Origin: Candidatus Omnitrophota bacterium
Lineage (GTDB): Bacteria; Omnitrophota; Gorgyraeia; Zapsychrales; JAKLDJ01
Direction: 5' to 3'
Assembly: GCA_022703585.1 (NCBI GenBank)
Contig: JAKLDJ010000003.1
Coordinates: 14,250 to 78,249, forward strand
DNA: 64,000 nt
Shown: piece by piece, positions 1 through 5,124 of the stretch
How the letters are laid out: each line of letters starts with the position of its first letter
Position numbering within the stretch: the stretch's first letter is position 1
The notes under the pieces: model-generated
What the model saw: the letters and a program-made list of their open reading frames with translations, nothing else
Database searches by the model: none
What the model was told of the DNA's origin: nothing
Made by a program: the position numbers and the translations under genes

Positions 1-37
1 TAGGAATAAAAAAAGAGGAAAAAGGGGATTATAAGGG

Positions 38-61
38 GAATTCCGGGGACACGATGCTTAA
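38..61. repeat. 24-nt repeat copy 1 (GAATTCCGGGGACACGATGCTTAA); partial copy at 84-93
   Basis: Read directly: the same motif recurs at 941-964, at 2218-2242 (with a partial tandem copy 2204-2217) and inverted at 161-184. It ends an upstream reading frame as ...EFRGHDA-stop. Confidence 0.8.
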
Positions 62-160
62 TTATCTGTGATTATTCTTATCCGAATTCCGGGTATGTGA
101 GATTGAGGAATCAACAGGGGTGAGGCTCACAAAGCAAAAACCGGGTCCAAAACTTAAGAA

Positions 161-184
161 TTAAGTATTGTGTCCCCGGAACTC
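161..184. repeat. Inverted copy of the 24-nt repeat (TTAAGTATTGTGTCCCCGGAACTC, 1 mismatch)
   Basis: Reverse complement of the 941-964 copy. With copy 1 it forms an inverted-repeat pair around a ~95-bp spacer. Confidence 0.75.
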
Positions 185-517
185 TGTAAGTTAAGCGATG
201 TTGAGCCTGGATGGTGGCAAAATAATTGGTTTATACGATGGGTACCAGAAGGACCAATAAGCCTAGAAGGAAGATGGACGCTTCAAGAACCACCTGAAAC
301 TATGATGTTAATCATAACTGGAAGACCACAGATGCTTGATTGGATATACGAAACTTGGAATATACAGCATGGACATTATGAATTTTTTGGTGGGTCGCTG
401 TGGAATCCATCTTATACTAGACCATTCAATAATAGAGTTTATCAACACATTTCAGTTCCTTATACATGGGATCAACCAGTGATAACCGAACCCCCGCCGC
501 CATTTTGGATAAATTGA
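170..517 (+). CDS. Hypothetical protein (115 aa, Trp/Pro-rich). GTG start lies inside the inverted repeat; may be a toxin-tip-like orphan or not a real gene.
   Basis: ORF with no recognisable motif. Sits inside a repeat-bounded cassette immediately upstream of a 4-TM ORF. Confidence 0.25.
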   Translation: MSPELCKLSDVEPGWWQNNWFIRWVPEGPISLEGRWTLQEPPETMMLIITGRPQMLDWIYETWNIQHGHYEFFGGSLWNPSYTRPFNNRVYQHISVPYTWDQPVITEPPPPFWIN

Positions 518-553
518 TGAGGAAATAATAAAACATAATCGGAGGAACATAAA

Positions 554-964
554 ATGAAATTATTCATTAAGATCAATGGCGTTTTTATATTGATAATTGG
601 AGTTGCGTTGCTATTGCCTGCATTTTTTGGAATAGTGGCGCATTGGCAGAGCATAGGTGACAAAGGATTTTTAATGGTTTATATAAAAGAGAATTACGTA
701 TCTGTTACATCTCTTCTATTATTTCTAATTTTAGGTCTATATTCCGTAATCCAAGGCTATGGGCTAATGGCGAACAGAAAATTTGGTTATAATTTAACCA
801 TATTTATGCCTGTTGCATATCTGTTATTTTTATTGTGCTGGAATGGTAGCTGGGATATCAGAATTTACTATTTCGTTTTATATGCAGTAATTCTTTTTTG
901 TGTATTTCTTACCTCACCAATTAAAAGATATTTTAGGACAGAATTCCGGGGACACAATACTTAA
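554..964 (+). CDS. Small polytopic membrane protein (about 4 TM), putative immunity-type protein; C-terminus ...TEFRGHNT is encoded by the 24-nt repeat
   Basis: Good RBS (GGAGG 8 nt upstream of ATG) and four hydrophobic segments. Its 3' end coincides with repeat copy 941-964. Confidence 0.55.
   Translation: MKLFIKINGVFILIIGVALLLPAFFGIVAHWQSIGDKGFLMVYIKENYVSVTSLLLFLILGLYSVIQGYGLMANRKFGYNLTIFMPVAYLLFLLCWNGSWDIRIYYFVLYAVILFCVFLTSPIKRYFRTEFRGHNT
941..964. repeat. 24-nt repeat copy (GAATTCCGGGGACACAATACTTAA)
   Basis: Direct copy. Supplies the last 8 codons and the stop of ORF 554-964. Confidence 0.8.
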
Positions 965-1026
965 TTATGTTTCTCCCCTGATCTTTGACAATCTTTTTAG
1001 AGGATGTCCCTCGTCCAGGCCGCACT

Positions 1027-1185
1027 CTTTCGCTCTGCTTCGCAGCGAAAGATTGCGGGGCTCGGGATGAATGATTTCAGCAAACTTACGTTCCCGCGAC
1101 CTTCGGTCGCAGTCCGTAAGTTTAGAAATCATTCAACGAAATTCTAACCGCTAAACGTCCGCCAAAATGGCAAGGCCATTTTGGC
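1027..1185. other. Cluster of three stem-loops: 1027-1051; a composite three-helix hairpin 1069-1134; and the perfect palindrome GCCAAAATGGC-AAG-GCCATTTTGGC at 1161-1185
   Basis: Inverted repeats read directly: gaatgatttc/gaaatcattc, aaacttacg/cgtaagttt, cgcgacc-ttcg-ggtcgc. Lies between cassette boundary repeat and RHS fragment. Confidence 0.6.
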
Positions 1186-1888
1186 GAGATCTCGTCATTC
1201 CGCTTATGGCGGAATGACGGACTATACGCTAAACGCTGGTGTGTATTATTATTTCTACGATGGATTGGGAAGTGTCACTGATGTCTCAGATGCGAGGGGG
1301 AATGTGGTGGAGAGCTATTCCTACGATGTTTATGGCCAACCGTCACAGTTATCGACAATAGGCAATAGATATTACTTTACGGGAAGGGAATACGACGAAG
1401 AATCAGGGCTTTATCACTACCGTGCCCGCGCTTACTCGCCGGTGATAGGAAGGTTTTTGCAGAGGGATCCGGTGGGGTATTGGGATAGCATGAATTTGTT
1501 TTCGTATGTGAATAATAATCCAGTGAATTGGGTTGATCCGTGGGGGTTGTGCAAGGGAGATGATGAAACGGGTTGGCTAAATGAGTTAGAAAAGTTATTT
1601 GGGCCTGGAGTTGCTTTTGCCGCTGAAAATAGCGATTCTTTTCCTTCGAATGCGATACCCCCTCGACCACATCAATTTACAAATTCTGAAATTAACTGGT
1701 TTGGAGTAGAATTTGTATTAAGTTTTGCGGCAGGTGTAGCAGGAACTGCTTTTGGCATTACCCATCATCCGTACATCGCACTAGGGGCTTACGGATTAGG
1801 ATTATGGCTGGGCTATCGGACTTATCGCCAATATCGAGAATGGGGACAAGAAAATATTGATGCGTATTTTAATAGGTTAGGAATTTAA
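1181..1888 (+). CDS. Orphan C-terminal fragment of an RHS/YD-repeat protein: RHS repeat-associated core end (YDxxGR...DPWGL) followed by a ~110-aa variable tip with a glycine-zipper-like hydrophobic segment
   Basis: Motifs YSYDVYGQ, YYFTGREYDEESGLYHYRARAYSPVIGRFLQRDPVGY and DPWGL match the canonical RHS core terminus. No N-terminal RHS body is present. Start codon uncertain (TTG 1181 or ATG 1214). Confidence 0.7.
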   Translation: MARSRHSAYGGMTDYTLNAGVYYYFYDGLGSVTDVSDARGNVVESYSYDVYGQPSQLSTIGNRYYFTGREYDEESGLYHYRARAYSPVIGRFLQRDPVGYWDSMNLFSYVNNNPVNWVDPWGLCKGDDETGWLNELEKLFGPGVAFAAENSDSFPSNAIPPRPHQFTNSEINWFGVEFVLSFAAGVAGTAFGITHHPYIALGAYGLGLWLGYRTYRQYREWGQENIDAYFNRLGI

Positions 1889-1920
1889 TACAATAAAGAT
1901 TAATGAAAGGAGCTGTTTAT

Positions 1921-2190
1921 ATGCAAGTATTAAGAAGTCAGTGGCCATTGCTAGTGGCTAGTCTGTTACTCGCAATCGGAGCAATGATTGGGTTTTATGA
2001 ATTAAACAGTAAGATGTATAGCTATCTGATTATGAAGATTACGAAAATGAATCCCGAGGGGAATATAATATATCTTAAAAGATTTTTTTATGCTTGCACA
2101 ATGATTAATTTAACTCAATTATGTATGACTTTCTTTAGCGGGTGCGCTATTGCAGCATTCTTAGCTAATAGGCGTAAAAAGGAAGAATAG
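1921..2190 (+). CDS. Small membrane protein (one TM), putative cognate immunity protein of the RHS tip
   Basis: RBS AAAGGAG 8 nt upstream of ATG 1921. Position immediately 3' of toxin tip. The longer frame from 1903 is less likely. Confidence 0.45.
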   Translation: MQVLRSQWPLLVASLLLAIGAMIGFYELNSKMYSYLIMKITKMNPEGNIIYLKRFFYACTMINLTQLCMTFFSGCAIAAFLANRRKKEE

Positions 2191-2203
2191 TGTCGTTTCT
2201 GCG

Positions 2204-2242
2204 GAATTCCGGGGACAGAATTCCGGGGACACGATACTTTAA
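2204..2242. repeat. 24-nt repeat copy with partial tandem duplication (GAATTCCGGGGACA + GAATTCCGGGGACACGATACTTTAA)
   Basis: Read directly. Closes the RHS-tip/immunity cassette. Confidence 0.8.
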
Positions 2243-2356
2243 AAAAGGGGTCAGCGCCCATTAAATATCTCCTCCGTCATTTGTAAAAGAAAAAGGGGCC
2301 AGCGCCCATTAAATATCCCATCCATCATTAGGAAAAAGGGGTCAGCGCCCTTTTTG
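2241..2356. repeat. Three tandem ~42-bp repeats (AAAAAGGGGYCAGCGCCCATTAAATATC...); the last unit is truncated into a hairpin AAAAAGGG-gtcagcg-CCCTTTTT
   Basis: Units at 2241-2283, 2284-2330 and 2331-2356 read directly. Not CRISPR-like (3 units, degenerate, no spacers). Confidence 0.7.
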
Positions 2357-2608
2357 ACTGAAATTCTATCATCACCATCTGTGTTGTTGGTAAGTCCTTC
2401 GATGATGCTCAGGACAAGCAAGCTTCCCACAACAGAGATGGTGAATTATTCAGCTTACTCTCTTCGTCGCAAATGAAACGAAAGTAAGGAGGGGGGCCCC
2501 GCCGTAAAAGCGGCGGGGCCCAGCGCCTGCCCTAACTTGCCAAGCGCCTCACCACGTGGTATTCTTATTGCGTCCCTTAACAGATTTTAAAAACGAGGTA
2601 TCGCTAAA

Positions 2609-4615
2609 ATGAAAGACAGGAATTATATTATTAAAGGAAGTTTGGGCATCCTTTTGCTGCTGTTCTCAGCAGCGGCCGGTTCTCCGGCGCAGGCTTCTCT
2701 TATCAATCCGGTTATGGTCCAGGGCCGACAGTTATTGGTGGACTTTGACGGGAATGATATTTATGAGCCGTATATGATCAGGGGAGTTGCCTATAATCCT
2801 TATCCGGTAGGTGTTTTTCCGACAGAATGGGGGACATGCGAGTATTGTGCGGGCGGGGTGCCTTCAGGTTGTTTTTATAGTTCGGCCGGAGACGGGGGAT
2901 ATGCCTGTTCGGTCGAACATCCGCCGACTGACCCCGGCCAAAACGGTGGCCCTGTGCATCCCTGGGGAGGGCAATCCTGCGGCGGTGTGTTGCCTTTTCC
3001 TAATTTGTGCGTCAATCTTTTTGACCGAGGGGATGTTAATCTGGACAGGGATTTTCAAAAGTTAGTGACGATGAACGTCAACACCATCCGCACCTGGGAA
3101 AAGGTCACGCCGACACTTTTAGCAAAAGCCAATCAATACGGAATCAAGGTTATTGCCGGTTACTGGATAGGCGAGGTCACGGATTTTAGCGACCCCGGAA
3201 CCCAGGTGGGTGCCTTAAAAAATGATTTTCGAAATTATATCCAGCATATGGTTGCCGACCCGAATTTTTCCGCCGTTCTTTTTGTGGCTATCGGCAACGA
3301 AAACAATTACCACTATTACTTGCCCGGTGATCCCCGGCCTCCCGAGGCTCCCTATTGTTATTTTTCGCCCAGCGATGGGCCCGAAACCGGGAATTTGTAC
3401 AGTTGGTACTTTCTGGTTAATCAGTTAGCCGGCGTGGCTAAAGGCGTTATTGGCATGAACAGGCCGGTGGCGGCGGTTAACGGCGACATAGTAGAAATCG
3501 GCCAGGCGATTTATTATGCCGATGACAGCCACATGGCCAATCTTGATATTTGGGGTGTGAATGTCTATCGGGGAATTTCTTTCGGCAATTTATTTACGAA
3601 TTTTGCCAGCCACAGCCAAAAGCCGCTATGGATTTCCGAGTGCGGGGTTGACGCGGTCTCGATGAATGATTTTTATGATGCCCCTCCGGATCCTCCCTAT
3701 GATCCCCAAGACGGGCAAGAAGCCCCGGAAACACAAGCCCGGTGGAATGCTGTTCAGTGGCGGGAGATTGTGATGAATCGTACGATTGCCATTGGTGCTA
3801 CCTATATGGAATATTCGGATGAATGGTGGAAGGGTGTTGTCCAAGACCAATATCATTGGGATTCCTTTACCCGGGAGCACAATTATTCAGGTATTTGCCA
3901 CCAATACGAGCCTTCCGTGGGAGTTTTGCCCGACAGCTACTTTAACGAAGAATGGTGGGGCCTGATGGAGGCCTCGACGGATCAAGGGCCGGGCGTTGAT
4001 ACTCTGGTTGAGCGCGATGCGTATTATGCGCTACGCGATAATTTTACCTGCGATAGCGAGCCTAACGTGTTTTATACGGGGCCGTATAACAGCAGAAGCT
4101 GTGACGGGACATACGCGTGTTGTCCGACGGCAAGCAAGATGGCCAAAAACGGCCAATGTGTCGCAAGTTGCGGCGGCTGTTTCCTTGCCGGAACCCCCAT
4201 ATCCATGGCAGACGGTTCTTTCAGGCCGATTGAATCGATTAAAATCGGCGATATGGTTTTGGCTTATGATGAAACAAGCGGTCAAATTAAACCCGATGAA
4301 GTCACCAATGTCTTTAACCATCCCAAAGAAGATAACTACCTTATTATTAACGGCCAGCTTAAAGTCACGCCGATTCATTCCGTCCTGAGTAAAGGGGAGT
4401 GGCGGCCGATCGGAGAGCTTAAAGTGGGGGATACTCTGACCGACCCGGCAGGTAAAGACATCTCTATTGTCAGCATTGTTCCGGTTCAGGAAAAAATCGA
4501 TATCTTTAATTTTGAAACCAGTCCGCACCATACCTATATTGCCGGCGGGTATGTTGTGCATAATCGGAAAATGGATATACACTTCGCCGTATTTCCGGAA
4601 GGCGGGGAGCGATGA
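2609..4615 (+). CDS. Secreted clan GH-A (GH5-like) glycoside hydrolase with Cys-rich insert and a C-terminal Hint (Hedgehog/intein-like) autoprocessing domain (about 4178-4564)
   Basis: Signal peptide (MKDRNYIIKGSLGILLLLFSAAAGSPAQA). Candidate acid/base motif IGNENN and nucleophile motif WISECG. The Hint block opens with CFLAGTPI and closes with GGYVVHN, followed by a 16-aa tail. Confidence 0.75.
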   Translation: MKDRNYIIKGSLGILLLLFSAAAGSPAQASLINPVMVQGRQLLVDFDGNDIYEPYMIRGVAYNPYPVGVFPTEWGTCEYCAGGVPSGCFYSSAGDGGYACSVEHPPTDPGQNGGPVHPWGGQSCGGVLPFPNLCVNLFDRGDVNLDRDFQKLVTMNVNTIRTWEKVTPTLLAKANQYGIKVIAGYWIGEVTDFSDPGTQVGALKNDFRNYIQHMVADPNFSAVLFVAIGNENNYHYYLPGDPRPPEAPYCYFSPSDGPETGNLYSWYFLVNQLAGVAKGVIGMNRPVAAVNGDIVEIGQAIYYADDSHMANLDIWGVNVYRGISFGNLFTNFASHSQKPLWISECGVDAVSMNDFYDAPPDPPYDPQDGQEAPETQARWNAVQWREIVMNRTIAIGATYMEYSDEWWKGVVQDQYHWDSFTREHNYSGICHQYEPSVGVLPDSYFNEEWWGLMEASTDQGPGVDTLVERDAYYALRDNFTCDSEPNVFYTGPYNSRSCDGTYACCPTASKMAKNGQCVASCGGCFLAGTPISMADGSFRPIESIKIGDMVLAYDETSGQIKPDEVTNVFNHPKEDNYLIINGQLKVTPIHSVLSKGEWRPIGELKVGDTLTDPAGKDISIVSIVPVQEKIDIFNFETSPHHTYIAGGYVVHNRKMDIHFAVFPEGGER

Positions 4616-4649
4616 GTTTTTAGGGTATTGAGTGGGATGTGATTTTAAA

Positions 4650-4709
4650 GGGCGCCCCCACTGCTGTCTTGCGACAGCAAGACATGGGGGCGCCCTCTTT
4701 GTTTTATTC
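4650..4709 (+). terminator. Rho-independent terminator (GGGCGCCCCCA...TGGGGGCGCCC stem followed by TCTTTGTTTTATT)
   Basis: GC-rich inverted repeat plus T-run immediately after the GH5-Hint stop. Confidence 0.8.
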
Positions 4710-4767
4710 ATTACCCTTTTGGGGTTTATGCGTAGTTAGTTTACCTAACTATTTTGATTAAATTATA

Positions 4768-4796
4768 TTGACAAAGTAACTAGACTATGTTATATT
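4768..4796 (+). promoter_or_regulatory. Sigma70-type promoter (TTGACA-17-TATATT)
   Basis: Consensus -35 and near-consensus -10 with 17-nt spacer ending 5 nt before ATG 4801. Confidence 0.55.
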
Positions 4797-4800
4797 TCAA

Positions 4801-5124
4801 ATGAGCTTAAAGAAAGGGTTCTCCATGAGGAAAGAATCTGCTGAGAAATTCGACGTGTTCATTAAACCGGAGGATCCGGTTTATGTTATTGGCGTCGTAA
4901 GCCAGATCGTCAATATCCCCATTTGGACACTGCGGAAACTCGACGAGATGGGAGTTGTTCAGCCGATACGGATAGGGAAGAAGACGCGCTGTTATTCTAA
5001 GATACAGATTCAGAAGCTTAGCTATGTGCATTATTTGATGGAAGACAAACATGTGAATATTAGCGGTATTAAAGTAATCTTAGAAATAGGAGGTGGTGTG
5101 GAGAAGAAGGAAGACGGGCTGTAA
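4801..5124 (+). CDS. MerR-family HTH transcriptional regulator (HspR-like heat-shock regulator)
   Basis: HTH segment YVIGVVSQIVNIPIWTLRKLDEMGVV is typical of MerR/HspR. Located directly upstream of hsp20. Confidence 0.6.
   Translation: MSLKKGFSMRKESAEKFDVFIKPEDPVYVIGVVSQIVNIPIWTLRKLDEMGVVQPIRIGKKTRCYSKIQIQKLSYVHYLMEDKHVNISGIKVILEIGGGVEKKEDGL

Follow-up and report, generated by a model that had tools for sequence, protein, structure and literature searches.

The first kilobases of a 64-kb stretch of DNA from a Candidatus Omnitrophota bacterium (contig JAKLDJ010000003.1, positions 14,250 to 78,249; the whole stretch is called the window below) carry a 24-nt repeat, GAATTCCGGGGACAC[G/A]AT[G/A]CTTAA, set between the genes of an rhs toxin locus. 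Very probably, this repeat marks the ends of a TIRtron, a mobile element encoding a transposase of the TIRYT type, as its terminal inverted repeat (TIR), and the copies in the window are gene-less derivatives of that element lying among spare rhs modules, with no dedicated site for cassette exchange. The repeat is a family-wide feature of the mobile element and is not specific to toxin cassettes. The element and the type of rhs locus are both already known, and are met here in a phylum that has been little studied. The result mainly dispels a false lead, in that a repeat at cassette borders is the end of a little-studied family of tyrosine-transposase elements.

The DNA to the left of the window was reached by exact look-up of the 668-aa product of window 2609-4615, which led to the 549-kb parent contig DAOOUB010000002.1 (GCA_035390605.1; L001 below, where window position = L001 position - 7392). 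An insertion sequence-like unit of 754 bp, the full TIRtron, occupies L001 4366-5119, about 2.3 kb to the left of the window. Its transposase gene (L001 4440-5099, 219 aa) has its stop codon inside the right repeat and is bracketed by 26-nt TIRs at L001 4366-4391 (+) and 5094-5119 (-), which match at 24 of 26 positions and are identical over the inner 23. The TIR contains GGGGACAC, matching the published consensus GGGGWSAS. The transposase is recognized by Pfam Y1_Tnp (53.6 bits, cutoff 23) and carries the HUH motif NHVHL and a catalytic tyrosine in RYVERNPV, both conserved in an alignment with five homologues. With GSU2396, a TIRYT in Additional file 5 of PMC3733652, it shares 53% identity over 216 aa (E 6e-87). 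In the NCBIfam ranking, REP_Tyr_transpos (1e-16) stands above IS200 (3e-4); the scores are under the cutoff both for NF047646 (RAYT; 61.1 bits, cutoff 80) and for NF033573 (IS200; 20.9 bits, cutoff 55), and the element has TIRs. The C terminus of the protein is a conserved extension of ~80 aa (TGRPLG...KPGPK) without a Pfam helix-turn-helix match at E<=0.1, and phmmer gave no match for the transposase among PDB sequences. No target duplication is visible at the element junctions, as expected for Y1 enzymes. About 10 copies of the motif are present in L001, all of them between 2371 and 9624.

The motif copies within the window, and the structures they build, are the following (window positions).

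38-61 (+), 24-nt motif
161-184 (-), 24-nt motif, one mismatch
941-964 (+), 24-nt motif
2218-2241 (+), 24-nt motif, one mismatch
2204-2217, partial motif, 14 nt, in tandem
84-93, partial motif, 10 nt
38-184 (+), internally deleted mini-TIRtron, 147 bp, with left TIR 38-63, partial TIR 84-93, and inverted right TIR 159-184
941-968 (+), solo TIR, with 100% identity to the full element's left TIR over 29 nt
2189-2241 (+), hairpin doublet of a degenerate inverted TIR arm (2189-2209), the 14-nt partial TIR (2204-2217), and a full TIR (2218-2241)
2242-2350 (+), 48-bp tandem repeat, 2.4 copies, carrying AAAAGGGGTCAGCGCCC, which also matches GGGGWSAS

A scan of the window placed the full and partial copies where the initial annotation, made from the sequence alone, had put them, and no further copy was found in the 64 kb; shuffled sequences give an expectation of 0.00 chance matches for the 24-mer and 0.09 for a 15-mer. 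Because window 100-160 encodes the C terminus of the transposase (the last ~20 codons, IEESTGVRLTKQKPGPKLKN*, with the asterisk marking the stop; 95% identity over 21 aa to the full gene) and then runs into an inverted TIR copy, the unit at 38-184 is the TIRtron in a 147-bp form with an internal deletion. As single-stranded DNA, this mini-element is predicted to fold into a panhandle (-26.1 kcal/mol, z -3.8), its arms 38-63 and 159-184 being 88% complementary over 26 nt. The hairpin doublet is likewise predicted to fold (-14 kcal/mol, z -5.4), with the degenerate arm 2189-2209 pairing with 2218-2238, and the solo TIR alone shows no folding (z -0.3). A further pair of inverted arms, 159-187 and 938-966, is 29 nt long and 97% complementary. 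The Rfam scan of window 1-5000 and L001 2000-10000 (E<=1) yielded chance-level matches only, no tRNA was found in the window, promoter and terminator scans did not rise above shuffled sequences, and a literature search with the motif string returned nothing relevant.

The distribution of the repeat in other genomes argues for a mobile element end. An exact scan for the 21-mer TTCCGGGGACACRATRCTTAA, with one genome per species, listed at least 120 genome stretches, and all counts that follow are among the matches listed. About a dozen phylum-level groups are represented: Omnitrophota (many), Gamma-, Alpha-, and Zetaproteobacteria, Desulfobacterota-type lineages, Planctomycetota, Clostridia, Elusimicrobia, Desantisbacteria, Spirochaetota, Nitrospirae, Saccharibacteria, WOR-3, and Bdellovibrionales. 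The identity of the TIR over 21-23 nt across these groups goes beyond the published 8-nt GGGGWSAS. TIRYT homologues adjoin an exact TIR in 16 loci (this one included) and are 24-55% identical where more than 80 aa could be aligned. In total, 213 TIR-like copies were located in 121 loci, L001 included. The arrangement TIR(+)-spacer-TIR(-) is the commonest, accounting for half of the neighboring pairs (34/68), and such head-to-head pairs are predicted to form long hairpins in single-stranded DNA. Their spacers measure 4-37 nt in 27 cases and 86-139 nt in 4, while the remaining 3 are full elements with ~700-790 nt; the 95-nt spacer of our mini-element falls in the 86-139-nt class, and ten other "+-" pairs lie at 25-139 nt. 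An arrangement of partial plus full TIR like that at 2204-2217 also recurs in other phyla (L048, L013, L044, L097). TIR sites are placed within long open reading frames (ORFs) in only 8% of cases versus 69% of random positions (92% are outside), and 32% of them, versus 10% of random positions, are no more than 40 nt from the 3' end of a gene.

Examples of the conserved TIR are provided by the L005-L124 set (e.g., L031 1981-2030, L009, L032, L053, and L114) and are mostly REPIN-like dimers with loops of 4-37 nt. In two Omnitrophota metagenome-assembled genomes (MAGs), solo TIRs and one TIRtron occupy apparently orthologous positions with the same flanks (L012 versus L092, L032 versus L053), which suggests that TIR copies persist through speciation, as REPINs do.

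RHS sequence was found in 2 of the 120 other TIR loci and in none of 59 control loci (604 kb, without TIR and RHS, from metagenome relatives at most 44% identical to the 668-aa protein); these figures are hints, not statistics. One of the two is a Sphingosinicella MAG (L108, 345-2343), in which a tRNA gene, a 3' remnant of a transposase, and an inverted TIR are directly followed by an orphan rhs core-tip and an ORF of 216 aa; another 1 kb on, there is a degenerate direct TIR. In the other, a Planctomycetota MAG (L024), an rhs tip is followed at a distance of 2.2 kb downstream by a TIRtron, which adjoins an IS256-like fragment. TIRtrons and rhs loci may therefore be recurrently co-located, on numbers that are too small to say more.

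RAYT-like genes with long terminal inverted repeats were described by Di Nocera, De Gregorio, and Rocco in 2013 (PMC3733652), who named the elements TIRtrons and the enzymes TIRYTs and reported that the TIRs share a motif, GGGGWSAS, and form families found singly, as dimers, or in groups. TIRYTs were later equated with subclass 2.1 TnpA-REP (Quentin et al. 2018, PMC6006769), which is marked by a helix-turn-helix-like extension at the C terminus and in which the Omnitrophota TIRtron probably belongs. The element studied here shares with these the Y1/HUH transposase of ~220 aa with its C-terminal extension, the bracketing of the gene by long GGGGWSAS TIRs, and the occurrence of TIR copies in all three forms, in addition to the 53% identity to GSU2396. 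It differs in its host, as Omnitrophota are not among the published examples consulted, in the clustering of copies in an rhs array, in a TIR that is near-perfect over 21-23 nt across about a dozen groups versus an 8-nt consensus, and in having no Pfam helix-turn-helix match. The REP/REPIN-RAYT systems (Nunvar 2010; Bertels & Rainey 2011, PMC3116915; Ton-Hoang 2012) have a related Y1 enzyme, as the best NCBIfam model indicates, and they too show intergenic, gene-less repeats that are mostly inverted hairpin pairs, as well as a gene flanked by inverted copies. In contrast to the repetitive extragenic palindromic (REP) sequences of those systems, which are imperfect palindromes of 20-40 nt tagged with GTAG or CGTC, a single repeat here is no palindrome and has no GTAG or CGTC tag, the RAYT score stays at 61 bits against a cutoff of 80, and the TIR is common to many phyla whereas REPs are lineage-specific. 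The REPIN-like hairpin dimers tie TIRYTs mechanistically nearer to RAYT/REPIN than their name suggests. The IS200/IS605 family is set apart by its NF033573 score (20.9 versus 55 bits) and by its subterminal hairpins, in place of which the present element has TIRs. A near-invariant TIR of 21-23 nt alongside divergent transposases points to a tightly constrained protein-DNA recognition and offers a ready TIRYT substrate.

The rhs genes of the array are, in the window, the following.

1-34 (+), 3' end of the immunity-like gene of orphan module 1 (L001 7100-7426; 108 aa, three transmembrane segments), with stop codon TAA at 32-34, 3 nt before the motif
1181-1888 (+), orphan rhs fragment 2, with core homology from ~1241, a core end at DPWGL (aa 123), and then a 112-aa Gly-rich tip
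1921-2190 (+), immunity-like gene of orphan 2, 89 aa, with two hydrophobic segments and an AAGGAG ribosome site (95 aa if started from 1903)

The full-length, secreted RHS protein of the locus (1365 aa), which has DUF6531 and RHS repeats in addition to a signal peptide, is encoded 6.5 kb upstream of the second orphan. Upstream of the window, the order of genes is this 1365-aa RHS, an 86-aa membrane protein, an AAA_14/DUF4143 ATPase, the 219-aa Y1_Tnp transposase, ORFs of 80 and 145 aa, and orphan 1 with its 108-aa membrane protein; the main rhs gene has its own immunity gene in the locus. The displaced rhs tip/immunity architecture suspected by the initial annotation is therefore confirmed by the leftward extension, with a second orphan lying between the full-length gene and the one in the window. 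Of what that annotation had suggested looking for further left, the full-length RHS gene is present, and so is a recombinase, namely the Y1 transposase bracketed by the motif, but the main RHS has no PAAR. ORF 1181-1888 matches the RHS-associated core TIGR03696 (89.3 bits, cutoff 32.5; residues 48-123), and the core of orphan 2 shares 72% nucleotide identity over 298 nt with the main rhs core. The main RHS and both orphans can be aligned through DPxG and diverge immediately afterwards. The earlier description of 1181-1888 as an RHS fragment with a DPWGL terminus and a variable tip was thus correct; the fragment is not contiguous with an intact rhs gene, nor is it an assembly artifact of one. 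A homologue search with the tip returned nothing, and the small ORF behind it, earlier given a single transmembrane segment, has two hydrophobic segments. Together, the two ORFs (1181-2190) make up a displaced (orphan) module of rhs core-tip and immunity gene, in which the toxicity of the tip and the immunity role are predicted, the latter from position and membrane character. The 14-17 public contigs on which these genes occur are all identical in architecture (exact look-ups of three window proteins; several samples), with no structural variant.

The whole is an ordinary rhs toxin locus, made up of a main RHS with its immunity gene, two orphan modules, and, probably, two pairs of tip remnant and immunity gene. 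rhs loci with orphan core-tip/immunity modules have reportedly been described by Jackson in 2009, Poole in 2011, and Koskiniemi in 2014. Shared with such loci are a main gene with a variable tip after DPxGL, a small immunity gene, and orphans that keep a piece of the core and have no start codon of their own. The present locus differs in that its main RHS carries a Sec signal peptide and lacks PAAR, in that toxicity and immunity are predicted, and in that a Y1 element, an ATPase gene, and a repeated hairpin block are interspersed among the modules of the array. In the Rhs elements of Escherichia coli, the insertion sequence-like H-rpt (ISAs1 family) habitually lies at the downstream end and is not part of the toxin system. 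It is a precedent for a transposable element in such a place, and differs from the TIRtron in being of the DDE rather than the Y1/HUH type and in having no miniature derivatives.

Two ORFs lie between the mini-TIRtron and the solo TIR.

170-517 (+), ORF of 115 aa, an ORFan, with a GTG start inside the inverted right TIR and no Shine-Dalgarno sequence
554-964 (+), ORF of 136 aa, immunity-like, with four hydrophobic segments and a GGAGG ribosome site, ending ...EFRGHNT-stop within the motif

They had been annotated as a toxin/immunity pair, which is not supported, both ORFs being ORFans. Among 5.8 billion clustered proteins or 1.8 billion cluster representatives, ORF 170-517 retrieved only itself or spurious matches, the two extra matches being eukaryotic retroelement-type proteins, and its single-sequence AlphaFold2 model, at a pLDDT of 55, is of insufficient quality for a fold search; the ORF may not be an intact gene. 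ORF 554-964 gave no homologue and is labeled by NCBI as a hypothetical protein (Candidatus Omnitrophota bacterium). Its last 7 codons and its stop come from the TIR, as the initial annotation had noted for its EFRGH C terminus. The second C terminus of this type, attributed to an ORF entering from upstream, does not exist, as that gene stops at TAA 32-34 and frame 2 reads RNKKRGKRGL*GEFRGHDA* (asterisks are stops). The same layout is found right after the full element, where an ORF starting in the TIR (L001 5105-5347) is followed by a gene that has a ribosome site and encodes a small membrane protein (L001 5355-5792). Both pairs abut the right end of an element, full or mini, and the bona fide immunity genes of the locus all encode small membrane proteins. 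In the most economical reading, then, the two pairs may be toxin-tip remnants and immunity genes that were severed from their rhs cores by the element.

Two further repeats, block B and module Y, belong to the array.

window 2359-2538, block B copy 4, after the last immunity gene
L001 2437-2581, block B after the main immunity gene
L001 4176-4337, block B after the ATPase gene
L001 5795-5968, block B after the 145-aa ORF (ORF145)
window 970-1139 (+), a 22-nt tail of block B (970-991), after the solo TIR, and module Y (996-1139)

Block B is ~170-190 bp long, is built of four consecutive hairpins, and is present in four copies in the rhs array that are 69-77% identical, which indicates that the events behind them are old. 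In three copies, a TIR occupies the same position at the 5' edge, which shows that TIR and block B were duplicated as a unit; one copy has no TIR. The hairpins are kept though the sequence shifts, with compensatory changes in 6/28 pairs, a figure that draws on only 4 copies. There is no Rfam match for block B, which may be a structured RNA/terminator block or a recombination structure in single-stranded DNA. Module Y is a long-hairpin sequence (GAATGATTTC..ACTTACG / CGTAAGT..GAAATCATTC) found at window 996-1139 and L001 6030-6227; it precedes both orphan rhs fragments and occurs twice before orphan 1. The same junction of tail and module Y precedes orphan 1 (96% identity over 46 nt), and the homology then runs into the rhs core. 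Both block B and module Y were sought in about 180 other loci and not found there, except for a 29-nt module Y match in L101. The AAA_14/DUF4143 ATPase gene (L001 2654-3895) is a non-toxin "cassette" between two TIR-block B copies of the rhs array. The 48-bp tandem repeat at window 2242-2350, with its AAAAGGGGTCAGCGCCC, may represent the TIR of another TIRYT family; its other half is similar to the start of block B, and a related single copy follows the ATPase gene (L001 3908-3925).

If it acts like IS608 TnpA and E. coli TnpA-REP, two established Y1/HUH enzymes, the transposase would recognize the hairpin into which a TIR pair folds in single-stranded DNA, would cleave and rejoin it via a 5'-phosphotyrosine link that leaves no target duplication, and would mobilize gene-less TIR pairs in trans. 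Selection would leave copies solely between genes, hence their placement just past stop codons, and any ORF running into the TIR would meet a stop in the TAA triplets of the inner end. The cassette array itself would follow the usual rhs route, in which new tips enter via core homology and old tips are displaced. Segmental duplication of block B, already with a TIR at its 5' edge, would have come in addition.

Several points weigh against this picture of a mobile element that has merely settled in the locus. To our knowledge, transposition activity has never been demonstrated for any TIRYT, so the mechanism stands by analogy. Within the 73 kb of readable genome, all ~10 TIRs are inside the 7.3-kb rhs array. 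Four of the five immunity-like genes have a TIR at most 35 nt behind them or overlapping them, a placement denser and more regular than at most other loci. RHS recurs at two of the 120 other TIR loci, in L108 with the TIR directly abutting an rhs core fragment, and in none of the 604 kb of control.

These points feed the idea that TIR and block B together form a functional boundary for capture and exchange, worked site-specifically by the Y1 transposase or by homologous recombination between copies of the boundary, in an integron-like but integrase-free array downstream of rhs. A TIR with the ~190-bp hairpin block does recur at cassette ends: five gene modules (main immunity, ATPase, ORF145, the 136-aa ORF, and immunity 2) end in TIR and/or block B, the hairpins of which are retained while the sequence changes. 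The non-toxin ATPase gene enclosed between two TIR-block B copies, the orphan tip and downstream ORF of L108 between an inverted and a degenerate direct TIR, and the fact that the other 61 kb of the window contain no TIR, block B, or module Y are also in its favor. An integron array would offer a likeness, with short promoterless cassettes each followed by a hairpin repeat conserved more in structure than in sequence, but here there is no IntI, attI, or attC core (GTTRRRY, checked by eye only), the block has four hairpins, and no evidence of mobility was seen. We nevertheless consider such a boundary unlikely. Across phyla, the TIR family is met overwhelmingly in unrelated intergenic contexts, with RHS in only 2 of the 120 other loci; segments of the form TIR(-)...TIR(+) elsewhere are the DNA between neighboring elements or the transposase gene itself. 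The left edges of the orphans are module Y or core sequence, with no TIR, one block B copy lacks the TIR, the block B copies are old by their 69-77% identity, and no exchange was seen among the 14-17 contigs from several samples. A dedicated exchange site is accordingly not supported. The stronger proposal, that TIR and block B are a working boundary at which the TIRYT captures toxin/immunity and other cassettes and stacks them downstream of rhs, would explain why element ends abut toxin modules both here and in the unrelated Sphingosinicella, and if true it would be a new route for building toxin/immunity arrays; we judge it improbable as well.

Two other explanations fare worse. The 97% complementary arms 159-187 and 938-966 could suggest an invertible switch in which 159-966 flips, and this segment appears as a separate 927-bp contig (L129) in short-read assemblies. 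However, no serine or tyrosine invertase is encoded in 22 kb, the TIRs face outward and the segment sits between two elements, and all long contigs have one orientation; the 927-bp contig ends exactly 30 nt into exact repeats longer than 31 nt, as would be expected from a k=31 assembly graph. Inversion is therefore very improbable. Hardly any credence is left for the motif as a coding C terminus (EFRGH..) or as a classical REP or attC site, to which the end of ORF 554-964 in the motif and the RAYT-like transposase might point. Only that single ORF ends in the motif, the second claimed case stops before it, and 92% of sites elsewhere lie outside long ORFs, so the coding reading is ruled out; a single copy that is not a palindrome, has no fold, and has no GTAG/CGTC tag is not a classical REP, and neither an integron integrase among the called genes of L001/L127 nor R''/R' cores, looked for by eye, were seen. 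With the repeat read as a TIRtron end, only the invariance of the TIR from one phylum to another and the structured block B deserve a further look.

Immediately downstream of the rhs array, window 2609-4615 (+) encodes the 668-aa secreted protein used above to reach the parent contig. This protein seems to be of the polymorphic-toxin type without a toxin tip, as only ~10 residues follow its pretoxin HINT domain (PF07591, 52 bits, residues 534-658).

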